A stretch of 64,000 nucleotides of DNA from Reclinomonas americana ATCC 50394 (GCA_048213135.1 PS015009.1:62001-126000); one strand, 5' to 3'. Shown: positions 29,974-38,114, numbered from the stretch's first letter. The notes: a model not told the origin generated them from the sequence alone. Numbers and translations are program-made.

Positions 29974-30660
29974 TTACAGTTCTTCGTTGAGGATGTTGTG
30001 TTTCACCGCGTACATAATAAGCCCGGCTGTGCTTTTGGCGCCCGTCTTTACTTTCAGCTTATCGCGTATGGCTTCCACCGTACGGGGGCTCAGGTCTACC
30101 AGGTCGGCAATCTCCTTGGTGCTTTTTTCTTCGCACATCAGTTTCAGTATAAGCGTTTCCTTTTCGTTGAGGTGCGCTTCCTGCTGCATCAGTTTTTGCG
30201 GTGTTACCACATTGCGTTGCTTCAGGTTGGTGAGCAGGGCTTTGTTGGTAAGCGAGTTGAAATAATATTCCTGTTCGAAGCAGGTCTTGATGGCTTCGTA
30301 AATGATCTCGCTGTCGCTTGTTTTGGTAAGATAGCTGTTGGCGCCCAGTTCCATCAGTTTGGTGATCATACTGTGATCGTCAACCATGGTCAGCATGATC
30401 ACTTTGGCATCGGGGCAAATCTTTTTGATCTCGGGGAGGGTGGTGATGCCATCCATAATCGGCATCTGTATATCCAGCAGGATCACGTCCGGCGGGATCA
30501 TTTTGATCATGTTCAGCAGGTGCATTCCGTTATCGGCTTCCGCCACCACTTTTACATCCTTTTTTGCGCTCAGGGCAGTTTTAACTCCCGCCCGGTATAG
30601 TACATGGTCATCAGCAATAATCACCTTTATCGGTTCTTTCATGTCAGCGTCTGGCATCAT
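29974..30660 (-). CDS. NarL/FixJ-family response regulator (RR1)
   Basis: IADDH, LLDIQMP receiver Asp, LuxR HTH LSPRTVEAIR. Confidence 0.93.
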   Translation of the reverse strand: MMPDADMKEPIKVIIADDHVLYRAGVKTALSAKKDVKVVAEADNGMHLLNMIKMIPPDVILLDIQMPIMDGITTLPEIKKICPDAKVIMLTMVDDHSMITKLMELGANSYLTKTSDSEIIYEAIKTCFEQEYYFNSLTNKALLTNLKQRNVVTPQKLMQQEAHLNEKETLILKLMCEEKSTKEIADLVDLSPRTVEAIRDKLKVKTGAKSTAGLIMYAVKHNILNEEL

Positions 30661-33407: not shown

Positions 33408-33609
33408 TTTGTACAGGGTTGTCTGTTTATGACAGCAATTATTACCCGGAAGTTGCAGGAACATTGTTTTTAATGATCCGCTTACCCCGGGAATACAAAT
33501 TTCATGAACGTTTCGCAGTAATCTGGAAGAAAAAAAACTTTTGTTCCGGGTATTTTCCGAATATGACCGTGTACCGGTATGGTTTATTGTTGCAGTAAAT
33601 ACGCTGTTT

Positions 33610-34263
33610 ATGAAAAGATACAATATTGTTGTAGCGGATGACCATATTGTTCTCCGCGATGCTTTGTGCAGCCTGGTGAATTCATTCGACGACTTCCGGG
33701 TGTCGGATGCCGCCGGCAACGGCCGGGAACTGATCCGTATTATTGAGATGGGGCCGGTGCCTGATATTATCCTGCTTGACCTGAACATGCCGCAGATGGA
33801 CGGATACGCCGTGGTGGAGTGGCTGCACCGGCACCGACCGCTGGTAAAGGTACTGGTGCTGACGATGTACGATTCGGAGATCGCCATGATTCGCCTGCTG
33901 AAACTGGGCGTAAAGGGTTTCCTGAAAAAGGATGTGCATCCTGCGGAGCTGAAAACCGCCCTGCTCTGTATCGCCGAAAACGGCTGCTACTATTCGCACA
34001 GTACCACCGGGCGGCTGGCAGCCTTCTTCCAGCGGGTGGAAGATATGCAGTTGTCTTTTCACAAAGCCCTGCTCTCGGATGCGGAACTGCGTTTCCTGAG
34101 GCTGGCGAGTACCGAACTTACGTATAAGGAGATTGCCCATGCCATGGGTACCACACCCCGTACCATTGACGGGTACCGGGATGACCTTTTTGAGAAACTG
34201 AATGTAAAAAGCCGCGTGGGTCTGGCTATTTATGCGGTAAAGAACGGGATTTCCACCTTCTGA
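33610..34263 (+). CDS. NarL/FixJ-family response regulator (RR2)
   Basis: VADDH, LLDLNMP, HTH TPRTIDGYRDDL. Start trimmed to MKRYNIV. Confidence 0.92.
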   Translation: MKRYNIVVADDHIVLRDALCSLVNSFDDFRVSDAAGNGRELIRIIEMGPVPDIILLDLNMPQMDGYAVVEWLHRHRPLVKVLVLTMYDSEIAMIRLLKLGVKGFLKKDVHPAELKTALLCIAENGCYYSHSTTGRLAAFFQRVEDMQLSFHKALLSDAELRFLRLASTELTYKEIAHAMGTTPRTIDGYRDDLFEKLNVKSRVGLAIYAVKNGISTF

Positions 34264-34264
34264 C

Positions 34265-34930
34265 CTACTCAATCAGTTTGTTGCGCATCCCGTACATGAT
34301 AAGGCCCCCGATGGTTTTGGCATCCACCTTGGTCTTCATATTCTGGCGAATGGTCTCGATCGTACGCGGACTCAGGAAGATGATCTTGGATATTTCCTCC
34401 GTGGTTTTGTCCTCGGCCAGGAGGCGGAGTATTTTCAGTTCTTTTTCGTTGAAACTCACCGGGGTATTGGTACCATAATGCTGTCGGACATTCTTTTTCT
34501 GCATCAGTTTGCCCATTACCGCCTTGTTTACCAGTTCATTAAAGTAAAAATCATCATTCATGCAGGTGAGTATGGCTTCGTAGATCTCTTCGGGGTCGGT
34601 GGTTTTGGTGAGGTAGGCATTGGCGCCCATTTCCATCATTTTGCTGATCATTTGCTGGTCGTCGTACATGGTAAGGACAATGATCTTGATGTCTTCGTAT
34701 TCTTTCCGGATGAGCTGGATGGCGTTGATCCCGTCTATTTCTGGCATCCGGATGTCCATCAGCAGTACTTCGGGCTTTTTAATGGCGATCTTGTGCATCA
34801 TGTCCTTGCCATCTTCGGCCTCCCACAGCATTTTCAGGTTGTCTTTGTTGGCGAGGGCCATTTTGATGCCATCCCGGAAGATTTTATGGTCATCGGCAAT
34901 GGCGATCTTGATAACGTGGTTATTACTCAT
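34265..34930 (-). CDS. NarL/FixJ-family response regulator (RR3)
   Basis: IADDH, LMDIRMP, HTH LSPRTIETIR. Confidence 0.93.
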   Translation of the reverse strand: MSNNHVIKIAIADDHKIFRDGIKMALANKDNLKMLWEAEDGKDMMHKIAIKKPEVLLMDIRMPEIDGINAIQLIRKEYEDIKIIVLTMYDDQQMISKMMEMGANAYLTKTTDPEEIYEAILTCMNDDFYFNELVNKAVMGKLMQKKNVRQHYGTNTPVSFNEKELKILRLLAEDKTTEEISKIIFLSPRTIETIRQNMKTKVDAKTIGGLIMYGMRNKLIE

Positions 34931-35066
34931 AGCGGTTTGATAATGGGTTAGTATAAAACTGGTTCTAAGTTACAATATTCAACATAAAAACACCCCTAAG
35001 GTTGTTCATATGCTGTGGATTTTTATGGGTCATTCTACAGCAAAAACAAGGCCGGGAAATCACTAC

Positions 35067-35100
35067 GTAAAACTACTAGTTAAAATACTCGTTGTTTTAC
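35067..35100. promoter_or_regulatory. Three tandem GT(A/T)-N4-TAC boxes, 12-bp period
   Basis: GTAAAACTAC (35067), GTTAAAATAC (35079), GTTGTTTTAC (35091). Confidence 0.55.
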
Positions 35101-35191
35101 GTACACACCCCGCATTACTACTCGATCGGGGGTAAATTCGGAAACCCCGAAAAAGGGAGTTTATGCGCTTGTGCAAGCCTGGTATCCTTTC

Positions 35192-35199
35192 TATTTTTG
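35192..35199 (+). promoter_or_regulatory. Sigma-A -7 box for the candidate sRNA
   Basis: TATTTTTG ending 5 nt before the 5' arm of the hairpin. Confidence 0.55.
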
Positions 35200-35203
35200 T
35201 ACC

Positions 35204-35329
35204 AGTTGATTGACATTGGTTCACATAATTAATGTTCTATCCAAAAAAATCCAATAAACCTAAGAGTTTCCAATTATCCAACGAAGAACCTGTTTGTGCT
35301 TGTGTTGCCATTGTCAATCAACTCTTTTT
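35204..35329 (+). ncRNA. Candidate small RNA with paired ends and a UCCAA-repeat loop
   Basis: Perfect 12-bp terminal stem (35204-15 with 35312-23) extended by TGG/CCA and CACA/TGTG, then a T5 tract. TCCAA occurs at 35240, 35250, 35269 and 35277. Confidence 0.6.
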
Positions 35330-35471
35330 GAATTTGCCCGACTTTAAATCCAATATCCCGTACACTGATCAACCGGCACAGGAATAGCCCTGTTCAGCAG
35401 CAGAAATGCCAGCTAACCGACAACCACCCGCGACCGGACTTACCACTTTAGGTAAGAAAAAGACTGGAATA

Positions 35472-35564
35472 GTAGATTTACTAACGTAAACTCACGAGGT
35501 TTATTGATAGTAAATTTACTATTTTTTATTCGTAAAACTACCCAAATATACTACGTTAATCTAC
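35472..35564. promoter_or_regulatory. Array of five GTA-N4-TAC-like boxes
   Basis: Boxes start at 35472, 35486, 35510 (inside the perfect palindrome ATAGTAAATTTACTAT), 35532 and 35555. Confidence 0.6.
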
Positions 35565-35596
35565 GTGCCATTATTTCATAACTACTTGACTGTCTT

Positions 35597-35604
35597 TACT
35601 TTTG
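35597..35604 (+). promoter_or_regulatory. Sigma-A -7 box for the peptide transcript
   Basis: TACTTTTG downstream of the box array. Confidence 0.5.
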
Positions 35605-35708
35605 ACTTTCGGCACCCTTTTTGAATCCATTTTAGCCGGTTGTGAGGCTTAGCGTTTTGAAGGAAGTTTACACCTCAAATTCAAATCGTAAACCACAAAA
35701 GCTAAATC

Positions 35709-35753
35709 ATGGTAATCAACTTTATTGAAGCGCTCGCTGAGTTTTTCTGCTAA
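35709..35753 (+). CDS. Candidate 14-aa small peptide MVINFIEALAEFFC
   Basis: ATG...TAA with an A-rich Bacteroidota-type initiation region (CACAAAAGCTAAATC-ATG, A at -3), directly upstream of the 7-TM/HK/RR genes. Confidence 0.55.
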   Translation: MVINFIEALAEFFC

Positions 35754-35773
35754 TTCTGTCCGGTTATTCTATT

Positions 35774-35804
35774 TTTGATTTTGGTAGATTTATAAGTATT
35801 TTTG
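35774..35804 (+). promoter_or_regulatory. Sigma-A promoter (-33 TTTG, 19-nt spacer, -7 TATTTTTG)
   Basis: Consensus spacing, immediately upstream of the open frame starting at 35815. Confidence 0.6.
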
Positions 35805-35814
35805 AAAAAACTAA

Positions 35815-36531
35815 GTACTTATCCTACAAACTCTTAAATACATAACCTATTTCACAGAGGTATTACCTTTTGTCTTTTATCTAATCTTTCTCCGGAAAGT
35901 TATTTCAAAAGATAGAAAGGTATTTTTTTTATATACACTTGTCATTGCTCTTCTTATACTGGTAGCGTTCACTTTCCGCTACGTTTTTGTCCAGTACGAT
36001 AAATACTTCCTCACGGTACGTATTTACAACTTCGTGGAATACGCCCTCTTATCGTATTTCTTCTCGCTCCAGATCAGGAACAGGATCATCCGTAAGGCAT
36101 TGTGGTTTTCTACCATCCCCTTCGCCCTCTTCTGCCTGTTTGACTTTATACGGTCCTCAGGCCCCGAATTGCCGTTTGGCCCCCTGGCGGTGGAGTATGT
36201 AATGCTGCTGATCTTTATTATTTACTTCTTCTTTGAGGTAATGGACAATACCAAGTCGGAGCCCATATACCAGAAACCGGTATTCTGGATATCGTCTGCT
36301 TTCATATTGAACTTCTCAGGTAATTTCTTCCTGTTCCTGTATTCAAAGAACAGTTACAGCGACAATGAAGTATTCCAGCAGCATTATACTATCATATACG
36401 GAACCATCACTATACTGAAAAATATCTTACTTTGCATTTCGGCCTACCAGTCCGAAGAAATACCTAATACGCCCAATCATTCTATTGACGTAAACCTAGA
36501 TTCCTTTTACCCACATATCAAAAAGCAATAA
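35815..36531 (+). CDS. Polytopic (~7-TM) membrane protein, probable co-sensor of the downstream kinase; start codon uncertain
   Basis: Frame of ORF 36034..36531 stays open back to 35815 and adds hydrophobic helices; seven hydrophobic segments in total. Confidence 0.75.
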   Translation, partial: VLILQTLKYITYFTEVLPFVFYLIFLRKVISKDRKVFFLYTLVIALLILVAFTFRYVFVQYDKYFLTVRIYNFVEYALLSYFFSLQIRNRIIRKALWFSTIPFALFCLFDFIRSSGPELPFGPLAVEYVMLLIFIIYFFFEVMDNTKSEPIYQKPVFWISSAFILNFSGNFFLFLYSKNSYSDNEVFQQHYTIIYGTITILKNILLCISAYQSEEIPNTPNHSIDVNLDSFYPHIKKQ

Positions 36532-36540
36532 CGGCAAAAG

Positions 36541-37365
36541 ATGTTCTTTTTACAAATAACAGAATCCTCTGGAATCACTCCTTTTATGCTGCTGGGTATA
36601 TTGGGAATGCTGACGCTGGCGATGTCCATCGTAGGGTTCGTTATTTTTCACCAGCGAAAGGTGATCCGTTATAATAACCAGCTCAAAAAACTGGAAGAAG
36701 AGAAACAACAGATATTACTGAACGCGTCTATCCGTTTCCAGGAAGAAGAAAGGAACCGTATCGCGGCCGACCTGCATGATGATGCCGGTCCCCTGCTGGC
36801 CACTGCCCGCCTTTACCTTAATGAGAACCTGGTGAACCAGGAAAAAAGCCAGCAACTCCAGAGCATCTACAGCGCCAAACAAATACTCGACGACGCCATC
36901 CTGCTGATCCGCAACATCAGCCACAGCCTGATGCCGCCCACTTTAAAGAACTTCGGGCTGGAGAGTGCCGCCACTGACCTTTTTCAGAAGATCGGCGCCA
37001 GCGGCAGCCTCAACGCCAGCGCCCGTTTCCACGATTATCGTATACGCCTGAAGGTTGAACAGGAACTGCTGGTATTCCGCATCATCCAGGAGCTGGTGAA
37101 CAATATCATCAAACACAGCAATTCGGGATTCATCCATCTTACCCAGAATAACAGCGGCAACAACATGTATTTCCGCATACATCATGATGGTACCGGCATT
37201 GTGCAGGCCGACTTTGAAAAACTCAACCAAAGCACGCTGGGACTGGGTTTGAAGAATATTGCCAGCCGTATCCGCGTACTCAAGGGAAGGATATTTTTCG
37301 AGATCGATCCCAGCCATACCTATTATAAGATCACGCTCGAAATTCCCAGGGAACCCGCCATCTGA
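36541..37365 (+). CDS. Sensor histidine kinase (HisKA_3 type) with a single N-terminal TM
   Basis: EERNRIAADLHDDAG H-box, RNISHSL, QELVNNIIKHS N-box, HDGTG and GLGLKNI motifs. Confidence 0.92.
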   Translation: MFFLQITESSGITPFMLLGILGMLTLAMSIVGFVIFHQRKVIRYNNQLKKLEEEKQQILLNASIRFQEEERNRIAADLHDDAGPLLATARLYLNENLVNQEKSQQLQSIYSAKQILDDAILLIRNISHSLMPPTLKNFGLESAATDLFQKIGASGSLNASARFHDYRIRLKVEQELLVFRIIQELVNNIIKHSNSGFIHLTQNNSGNNMYFRIHHDGTGIVQADFEKLNQSTLGLGLKNIASRIRVLKGRIFFEIDPSHTYYKITLEIPREPAI

Positions 37366-37463
37366 TCCTTATCATTTCCTTCATCACCATACGGCAAACG
37401 AACATTAAAAACAGATTTTCAATTCAATATTCCTTTTTGTAATTTTACGACAGCCCCCAGTTT

Positions 37464-38114
37464 ATGAACGAAATAAAAGTCGCCATCGCAGATGATCATA
37501 AAATCTTCAGGAAAGGTGTGATCCTGTCCATGAGGTCCTATACCAATATCAAATTTGTTATGGAGGCCGACAACGGAGATGACCTGCTGGCCAAGATACC
37601 CGAATTTGAACCAGACGTGATCCTGTGCGACCTGAAGATGCCTGTACGTGATGGCATCGATACCACCAAACTCATTACCAAGAATTACCCCGGTATACGC
37701 GTTATCATCCTCACCATGTATGAGGACGAGCGCTTTGTGGGGCACCTGATGGATTGCGGCGCCGCCGGTTACCTCCTCAAAAGTACCGAGCCCGCCGAGA
37801 TCAAAAAAGCGATCATGGACGTGATGCGCACCGGTTTCTACCTCAACCCGTTCGTGAATAAAGTACTCATCAAGAAAAATTACTCCAAGCAGAAATTCAA
37901 CCCCACCCTCACTACGGAAGTAGTACTGAGCGAAAGGGAAAAAGAAGTGCTTACCCTGGTGTGTATGGAGTTTACCGCCGCTGAGATCGCCGCTAAAATG
38001 GACATCAGCGCCCGTACGGTAGAAGCCATCAAAGACAGGCTGATGGAGCGTTTTGGTGTAAAGAACTCGGTGGGACTGGTATTTTACGCGATGAAGAATT
38101 CGCTGATCGATTAA
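37464..38114 (+). CDS. NarL/FixJ-family response regulator (RR4)
   Basis: IADDH, LCDLKMP, HTH ISARTVEAIK. Confidence 0.93.
   Translation: MNEIKVAIADDHKIFRKGVILSMRSYTNIKFVMEADNGDDLLAKIPEFEPDVILCDLKMPVRDGIDTTKLITKNYPGIRVIILTMYEDERFVGHLMDCGAAGYLLKSTEPAEIKKAIMDVMRTGFYLNPFVNKVLIKKNYSKQKFNPTLTTEVVLSEREKEVLTLVCMEFTAAEIAAKMDISARTVEAIKDRLMERFGVKNSVGLVFYAMKNSLID

Follow-up and report, generated by a model that had tools for sequence, protein, structure and literature searches.

A conserved small RNA gene of Chitinophagaceae with repeated UCCAA motifs in a closed loop, possibly acting as a multivalent decoy

Introduction

CsrB, RsmY/Z, and CrcZ are multi-motif decoy RNAs that are driven by two-component systems. 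To our knowledge, Bacteroidota have been reported to be without Hfq and ProQ, and post-transcriptional control in Bacteroidota beyond the gut Bacteroides is almost unexplored; our literature search found no paper describing a small RNA (sRNA) of Chitinophagaceae or a decoy RNA of Bacteroidetes. The multi-copy sRNAs GibS and FopS of Bacteroides are associated with the RRM protein RbpB (PMC11697453). Here, we analyze an element of about 125 nt at positions 35204-35329 of a 64,000-nt stretch of DNA from Reclinomonas americana ATCC 50394 (GCA_048213135.1 PS015009.1:62001-126000), hereafter the window, to which all coordinates refer. A first-pass annotation of the window had proposed that the repeated motifs of this element titrate an RNA-binding protein, in analogy to the GGA repeats of CsrB/RsmZ. 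Our overall reading, to which we assign a probability of roughly 40%, is that the element is an sRNA gene of Chitinophagaceae that is controlled by the response regulator encoded beside it and acts as a multivalent decoy.

Results

Sequence features of the element

The sequence features of the window element exceed chance. A -7 promoter box, TATTTTTG (35192-35199, + strand), matches TAnnTTTG, which we take to be the Bacteroidota -7 consensus, and lies 4 nt ahead of an inverted repeat. The RNA is predicted to start with the 5' arm of this repeat, AGTTGATTGACA (35204-35215, + strand, with a TTGG extension to 35219), whose perfect reverse complement over 12 bp forms the 3' arm, TGTCAATCAACT (35312-35323, + strand). 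Past one mismatch, the resulting closing helix can be extended by TTGG/CCA. The helix is followed on the same strand by a T-run (35324-35330, with five T at 35325-35329) that presumably serves as the site of intrinsic termination. The first-pass annotation had chosen its span so that it opens at the first base of the stem and closes with the T-run, and the -7 box, the perfect 12-bp stem, its extension, and the T-tract that it described were all found.

Between the arms lies a G-poor, A-rich, and unstructured loop (35220-35288, + strand) that carries ATCCAA at 35239, 35249, and 35276 and TTCCAA at 35268, in agreement with the three and one copies counted previously. The sequence TTTCCAATTATCC..GAAGAACC (35267-35290, + strand) represents one copy of a longer motif unit of the family. 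The loop is followed by a G/U-rich block, CCTGTTTGTGCTTGTGTTGCC (35289-35309, + strand), which in the alignments is almost invariant among 40 close orthologues and missing from distant family members. A 129-nt RNA folds with its ends paired at -28.7 kcal/mol compared to -17.3 +/- 3.1 kcal/mol for dinucleotide shuffles (z-score -3.68), and none of 200 shuffles was as stable. ATCCAA is about threefold rarer in the window than expected, as the two strands together hold 15 matches where dinucleotide shuffles predict 47.5 +/- 7.5, and 4 of these 15 fall within the 115 nt of 35239-35353, where the rate of the window predicts about 0.02. Over the whole window, 13 of the 15 matches are located on the + strand.

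Conservation among orthologous loci and coding potential

The protein sequence of the neighboring regulator was used as query and retrieved 80 related loci with 89-96% identity from species-level genomes labelled Ferruginibacter, Chitinophagaceae, or Chitinophagales, and the kinase and membrane protein genes beyond the element were syntenic in most of them. The element was found by nhmmer in 40 of the 80 loci at a distance of 250-400 nt from the regulator start codon, with one exception at 950 nt (L017) and one copy cut by a contig end (L030). No other part of the 1.1-kb intergenic gap is conserved as well, as the mean column identity to the window was 0.59-0.87 for 35191-35330 and 0.20-0.50 on either side (25 of the 40 loci aligned). 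The remaining 40 loci showed no match with either of the two covariance models (R1 and R2, below), three of them having less than 320 nt of upstream sequence and therefore not being judgeable. A downstream block (35472-35549) was kept in 17 of the 22 element-less loci for which 1300 nt of upstream sequence was available, and there it lies nearer to the regulator gene. One set of close relatives therefore carries the RNA gene, and another is without it.

The first-pass annotation had seen no convincing open reading frame (ORF) at this position. A 51-codon ATG ORF (35232-35387) does overlap the element, but it is conserved in none of the 39 full-length orthologues, and its product belongs to no Pfam family. 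The longest ORF over the element varies in start, frame, and length (14-81 codons) across the 40 orthologous sequences, the ATG of the window is unique, and the frame in which the conserved 3' block is read changes with the species, all three being used. Alignment gaps among the orthologues are not multiples of three, and contigs of a relative with about 97-98% identity carry a 1-nt deletion at 35243 that frameshifts the 51-aa ORF. On the basis of the unconserved start, frame, and length, the gap lengths, and the frameshift, we regard the element as non-coding.

Covariation in the closing helix

An alignment of 73 sequences was assembled from the 40 orthologues and 33 distant family members. 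For the orthologues, RNAalifold predicted solely the closing helix (12 + 3 pairs) and left the loop open. Across all 73 sequences, 98.2% of the 876 cells of the 12 helix pairs form standard pairs. Compensatory changes were present in four pairs and 26 cells, for example from C-G to U-A in 20 sequences; 37 cells were G-U, and all single-sided changes were G-U or U-G. None of 500 column shuffles matched the observed pairing or covariation score, and in a control in which the partner was slid by 1-3 columns, pairing fell to 15-44%. The covariation analysis suggested along with the initial proposal supports the helix. The single-sided changes, which would be C-A mismatches on the opposite strand, point to pairing in a + strand transcript.

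Five of the helix pairs show no variation at all, and the sequence of the two arms hardly changes, which pairing alone leaves unaccounted for. The helix closes a span of 86-141 nt from arm to arm (median 116, 73 members), far longer than the usual terminator loop, and its role as a terminator is presumed. In distant members, the last motif copy forms part of the 3' arm (AUCCAAUGUCAAUCAACU), and in the window clade, GACAUUGG is the exact complement of CCAAUGUC; because the last motif copy belongs to the 3' arm, the 5' arm is an anti-motif. About 11 paralogues have a proximal ..AUCAAUCA that is able to pair with the 5' arm in place of the distal arm, and the window copy is without it.

The repeated motif and its occurrence outside the loop

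UCCAA is the core of a longer degenerate unit, UCCAAU[A/G]UCC, which is often followed by GAAAAACC, and distant members additionally carry ACCGUCC. Within the 73 elements, WTCCAA occurs 176 times in sense and once in antisense orientation, compared to 82 and 5 times in the 300 nt downstream and 8 and 5 times in the 250 nt upstream, with a background of 0.83 per kb per strand. Each element holds 1-4 WTCCAA units that vary in number and spacing between members, and the loop in the window displays 3-4 copies of this conserved strand-specific motif. The loop composition over the 73 members is A 0.37, U 0.29, C 0.22, and G 0.13, and the loop is unpaired in the consensus fold as well as in the centroid folds of six members. 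The initial proposal had been made to depend on conservation of the stem and the motifs, and both are conserved across the family.

Motif copies also extend beyond the presumed termination site. In the window, CCCGnnTTTAAA and TCCAATATCC (35337-35358, + strand) form a fifth, full-length copy past the T-run and outside the closed loop; the exact 10-mer TCCAATATCC at 35349 stands 20 nt beyond the T-run inside a CCCGnnTTTAAATCCAATA block that is conserved in the orthologue alignment. Motif units run on for 150-300 nt past the T-run in many paralogues. The ATCCA at 35625 that had been pointed out in a peptide leader is a single 5-mer and carries no weight. At L086 (500-790 and 1250-1410, - strand), each of two tandem family copies is followed by an array of tandem repeats, with units of 57 nt (3.8 copies) and 54 nt (2.7 copies), between PALP+CBS and Peripla_BP_2 genes. 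Each of these repeats carries CCAATATCC and then GCCTATGCC..GCGATGATGGC, and the periods are multiples of three with frames that, on reading by hand, are interrupted by stops.

The 10-mer or its complement was found 25 times in the genome of a relative, G001 (control 7), and 13 times in a further genome, G002 (control 6). In G001, 20 of the 25 sites were inspected, with 21 matches in 20 loci. Nine matches in G001 fall in coding regions, all antisense in ORFs and explained by D-I-G codons, and about 10 are intergenic, in sense orientation, and adjoin genes that share no function. A repeated intergenic module of about 75 nt with unrelated flanks was observed in the same genome at L121, L124, L125, L129, and L130 (~960-1030). 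It is composed of a GC hairpin, GGGGCYGGATAGAMATCCWGCCCC, followed by GTTTTAAAA, TCCAATATCC, and TATGAAAAACC, and is located behind UvrC, QueA, lactonase, and CHAD genes; its 3' half also follows the RNA gene of the window (35337-35358). A different arrangement at L128 of G001 (960-1380) contains two tandem units of about 130 nt. In each, a -7-like box is combined with TCCAATATCC at the position predicted for the 5' end, a leader rich in C and A, and a canonical GC hairpin with T-run. These units may be a second type of sRNA with the same motif.

Promoter, upstream boxes, and transcription

A strict TAnnTTTG box is present in 66 of the 73 members, the other seven having one mismatch, and in all 73 the box ends 3-8 nt before the first stem base. 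TTG is found 15-25 nt ahead of the box in 51 of the 66 members with a strict box, and at least five T occur within 8 nt after the 3' arm in 61 of 73. Upstream of the promoter in the window, a conserved block of GTAAAT..GGAA, an A-run, GGGAG, and TGCGCTTGT (35133-35174, + strand) includes TTG at the -33 position (35169-35171), and the consensus of this block, GTAAATACcGAA..AAAAAgGGCAAT..TGCTCTTGT, is common to members in unrelated genomic contexts. Two near-palindromic CGTA-N4-TACG boxes with one mismatch each (35066-35077 and 35090-35101) lie 138 and 114 nt upstream of the RNA start. When up to one mismatch is allowed, the 250 nt ahead of the 73 members hold this palindrome at 4.06 per kb, compared to 0.61 per kb over all loci. 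At least one upstream box is present in 54 of 73 members, including members not beside a regulator, and 66 of the 74 upstream matches lie between -150 and -75. A similar enrichment is seen on the downstream side, with 5.0 per kb over 250 nt. The boxes are candidate operators for a GerE/LuxR-type dimer, and the neighboring regulator may be the protein that binds them.

RNA-library contigs are compatible with transcription of the region. In the matching runs, which hold about 0.6 of the sampled words, contigs from three runs of one study cover 34600-35490 as one piece including the regulator gene; separate contigs cover 35544-35892 and 35621-35862, and a probable DNA run covers all of 34600-36400. 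Assembled contigs give no ends, strand, or local depth and such libraries may contain DNA, so that these contigs do not resolve a discrete transcript, its end, or its strand, and no weight can be given to gaps such as 35893-36277 or to the end that the contigs share at 35490.

The element thus combines its own promoter at a fixed distance, a terminal helix followed by a T-run, conserved single-stranded motifs on one strand, and the lack of a conserved ORF, as would an independent sRNA gene. We conclude that it is very probably a real and conserved non-coding sRNA gene of about 125 nt, and the stand-alone small RNA predicted by the first-pass annotation is supported.

Distribution of the RNA family

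Two covariance models were built, R1 on the orthologues and the broader R2 on the 73 sequences. R1 scored 66-138 bits on the expected strand and 20-37 bits on the reverse strand. In all five related whole genomes, R1 recovered the regulator-adjacent copy and one or two further copies (42-55 bits), with one pair of family copies in tandem at a distance of 708 nt. The larger genome samples were searched with Infernal's stricter filters, so that a null denotes not found among those searched. R1 matched 29 of 121 sampled genomes of the taxonomic family, and R2 (E <= 1e-4) matched 53 of 151 sampled Chitinophagaceae genomes with 1-7 copies per genome and none of 150 other genomes sampled across the class. 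The window contains one family copy and, besides it, a weak 22-bit R2 match at 35471-35528.

In 14 of 32 distant loci, the RNA gene has the arrangement of the window and is divergent from a Response_reg + GerE gene; in 11 it lies behind a PALP + CBS enzyme gene and/or ahead of a Peripla_BP_2 gene, in three it adjoins a short-chain dehydrogenase gene, and four loci are miscellaneous. The positions of the family copies are syntenic across genera in three recurrent contexts. The membrane protein encoded downstream of the element is recognizable in the distant locus L100 (E 2e-12), and this argues that the gene order regulator-RNA-membrane protein-kinase is old. A search of Rfam 15 gave only chance-level rows in 33500-37500 (E up to 10) and no match in nine paralogue loci (E up to 0.1), and this held for models of the CsrB/RsmZ type. 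The match to a known Rfam family that had been envisaged as a way for the proposal to fail was accordingly not found in these regions. The element is a member of an uncatalogued multi-copy sRNA family that is confined to Chitinophagaceae in the samples searched, and with the family covariance model, roughly one in three of the sampled genomes of this taxonomic family can be annotated with 1-7 such genes.

Genomic neighborhood

The element sits in a 1.1-kb gap between a divergent regulator gene and a co-directional gene pair. The regulator (34265-34930, - strand) is a NarL/FixJ-type response regulator with Response_reg and GerE domains according to Pfam; it scores under every NCBIfam equivalog cut-off and is therefore not nameable more closely. 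The gene pair, presumably the operon of the partner kinase, encodes a membrane protein without Pfam family (36034-36531, + strand) and a HisKA_3 histidine kinase assigned by Pfam (36541-37365, + strand). A second NarL-type regulator gene (Response_reg + GerE; 29974-30660, - strand) is located 4 kb away, with no family RNA adjoining it.

Several further features were observed between the RNA gene and the operon. In a conserved block at 35471-35560, additional CGTA/TACG boxes are accompanied by a perfect hairpin rich in A and T, ATAGTAAA/TTTACTAT, with a T-run behind it. Another -7-like box, TACTTTTG (35596-35603), stands upstream of the conserved blocks 35651-35710 and 35791-35930, and the start region of a 14-codon ORF (35709-35753), GGTAATCAACTTTATTGAA, resembles the 3' arm and tail of the RNA. 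The stretch 35596-35892 may be a second small transcript or a leader of the operon.

Discussion

In the proposed mechanism, the divergently encoded NarL-type regulator would control transcription of the RNA through the CGTA-N4-TACG palindromes common to the paralogues. The first 12 transcribed bases would pair with the last 12 before the T-run, so that the ends close a G-poor loop, and this terminal helix would shield both ends and double as the terminator. Through its repeated single-stranded motifs, the RNA would then capture and titrate a factor that recognizes this motif in single-stranded RNA, in all likelihood a protein, for instance one of the small RRM proteins, and titration would pass the two-component signal on post-transcriptionally. 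We favor a multivalent decoy because each locus holds 3-12 repeats of the motif that differ in number and spacing, because the motif lies in unstructured RNA and recurs in several paralogues and tandem genes, and because known decoy RNAs driven by two-component systems are built alike. The protein-sponge function put forward initially appears to be a reasonable leading hypothesis. Each of the five genomes searched contains three RRM_1 genes, and RRM proteins are candidate binders; it is speculation that a dimer would match the twofold UCC-N4-UCC arrangement of the motif.

A broader possibility, which we consider doubtful, is that Chitinophagaceae run a Csr-like global post-transcriptional switch of independent origin, in the form of a NarL-type-driven regulon of closed-loop decoy RNAs. 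The UCC-N4-UCC..GAAAAACC units and the arrays behind some paralogues would titrate a sequence-specific RNA-binding protein, and the natural targets of this protein would be those marked by the motif beside terminators or at the 5' end of another small RNA. More immediately, the family suggests a testable circuit from kinase to NarL-type regulator, CGTA-N4-TACG box, and sRNA, and the 10-nt RNA motif could be used as bait for an RNA-binding partner.

Several observations weigh against a regulator-controlled decoy. Half of the closely related loci (40 of 80) are without the element, and it therefore appears to be dispensable beside the two-component system. The case for control by the regulator consists solely of adjacency and the shared palindrome, and the RNA-library contigs cover the element just within one piece that spans the regulator gene. 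A decoy does not account for the almost invariant sequence of both helix arms. The sequence analyses are compatible with both protein binding and RNA pairing. In G001, the 10-mer stands directly after GC hairpins behind unrelated genes, and two other small units with terminators carry it where their 5' end is predicted. In Bacteroides sRNAs, the 5' end is the typical place of a base-pairing seed (PMC11697453).

Base-pairing is accordingly the main rival to the decoy. Here, the same sRNA would use its repeated C-rich, G-poor motifs as redundant seeds for G-rich mRNA sites (~GGAUAUUGGA), and in the window clade the G/U-rich block at 35289-35309 could serve as an additional seed. We consider this reading possible, although on balance unlikely. 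The motifs are single-stranded and conserved, the CCTGTTTGTGCTTGTGTTGCC block hardly varies in the 40 orthologues, the two other small units of the relative begin with an identical 10-mer, and GibS and FopS use single-stranded seeds on translation initiation regions (PMC11697453). However, 3-12 motif copies of variable number and spacing, with arrays beyond the terminator, would be unusual for seeds, and no target class was found; the sole complementary site in the window (63106) is at the 3' end of a coding gene, and D-I-G codons explain all nine coding-region matches in the genome of the relative. Distinctly less probable is a cis-acting leader or attenuator, in which the helix and T-run form a conditional terminator and a motif-binding factor or an alternative hairpin decides on read-through. 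Such a role would fit the co-direction of the element with the membrane protein and kinase operon and of paralogues with a Peripla_BP_2 gene, the proximal ..AUCAAUCA of about 11 paralogues that competes for the 5' arm, the motif units past the T-run, and the RNA-library contigs that reach about 160 nt beyond it. However, the window copy has no proximal competitor, and it is separated from the next gene by 700 nt, with additional -7-like boxes and palindromes ahead of that gene. Moreover, 17 of the 22 relatives tested that are without the element retain the downstream regulatory block and the operon, and the first long ORF beyond the element is on the opposite strand in some distant loci (picked by script and unchecked, with no Pfam family).

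A role at the DNA level, either as an iteron- or operator-like repeat array flanked by inverted repeats or as a mobile element like a miniature inverted-repeat transposable element (MITE) or a repetitive extragenic palindromic (REP) sequence, is more improbable still. The almost invariant terminal inverted repeats of 10-12 bp around a variable interior, the 1-7 copies per genome with presence and absence among close relatives, and the motif beside repeated GC hairpins would agree with it. Against this, all 37 single-sided helix changes are G-U and maintain pairing in the transcript of one strand, although G-T in single-stranded DNA is conceivable, and the motifs are strictly strand-specific and downstream of a promoter. 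Since the paralogues share about 90-150 nt of promoter and operator outside the repeats, the inverted repeats are not the ends of the duplicated unit; in addition, the copies occupy positions that are syntenic across genera in three contexts, and no target-site duplication was visible by eye in the alignment. The probability that the element encodes the 51-aa peptide (35232-35387) or another small protein is close to negligible. The 51-codon ATG ORF does exist in the window, but it has no Pfam family and is not maintained in start, frame, or length across the 39 full-length orthologues, in which the conserved block is read in three frames. In addition, indels are not multiples of three, and a relative has lost 1 nt at 35243.

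Two described kinds of RNA were also considered and rejected. Compared to the dCas12f guide RNAs (PMC13472631), the element has a different architecture and no rpoE-dcas12f neighbor. Assignment as a Y RNA was rejected because no TROVE/Ro gene (PF05731) was found in any of the five genomes. The element does share with Y RNA/YrlA a length of about 100-130 nt and a helix of conserved sequence in which the two ends pair around a large loop with pyrimidines, but it has no tRNA-like module and no Rfam match, and its gene is located beside two-component genes rather than rsr.

The likeness to CsrB/CsrC and RsmX/Y/Z lies in a small RNA with many short single-stranded motif copies, variable in number and spacing, and with several paralogues per genome. 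A NarL/FixJ-type regulator is the candidate driver here, in the role that BarA-UvrY or GacS-GacA have there. The analogy drawn in the first-pass annotation therefore stands as one of logic, but it does not extend to the components. The motif is UCCAAU[A/G]UCC instead of GGA and is displayed in one open, unstructured loop instead of hairpin loops, and CsrA (PF02599) was found in none of the five related whole genomes, with control genomes behaving as expected. CrcZ and CrcY of Pseudomonas, the CbrAB-driven decoys of Hfq/Crc, are likewise unstructured multi-motif decoys with a gene beside the driving two-component system. However, CrcZ is about 400 nt long with A-rich motifs and an RpoN promoter, whereas the element has about 125 nt, a C-containing motif, a promoter of the -7/-33 type, and paired ends.

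Among base-pairing sRNAs, RsaE/RoxS and other sRNAs of Firmicutes with C-rich motifs similarly contain several unpaired motif copies in one sRNA, and the C-rich motifs of RNAIII provide a related parallel. In RsaE/RoxS, UCCC/CCCC in hairpin loops pairs with the Shine-Dalgarno sequence, whereas the motif here is UCCAAU and no complementary target class was found. GibS and FopS are also multi-copy paralogous sRNAs of Bacteroidota with canonical promoters; FopS is 65-70 nt long, consists of a single single-stranded 5' seed followed by a short terminator hairpin, and is in Rfam (PMC11697453). The element differs from both in its paired 5' end, its repeated motif, and its lack of an Rfam match. Overall, the RNA resembles CsrB/RsmZ or CrcZ in logic and Y RNA in outline and is a member of none of these families; if its partner is a protein, it would represent a titration system convergent with Csr/Rsm in a phylum without CsrA.

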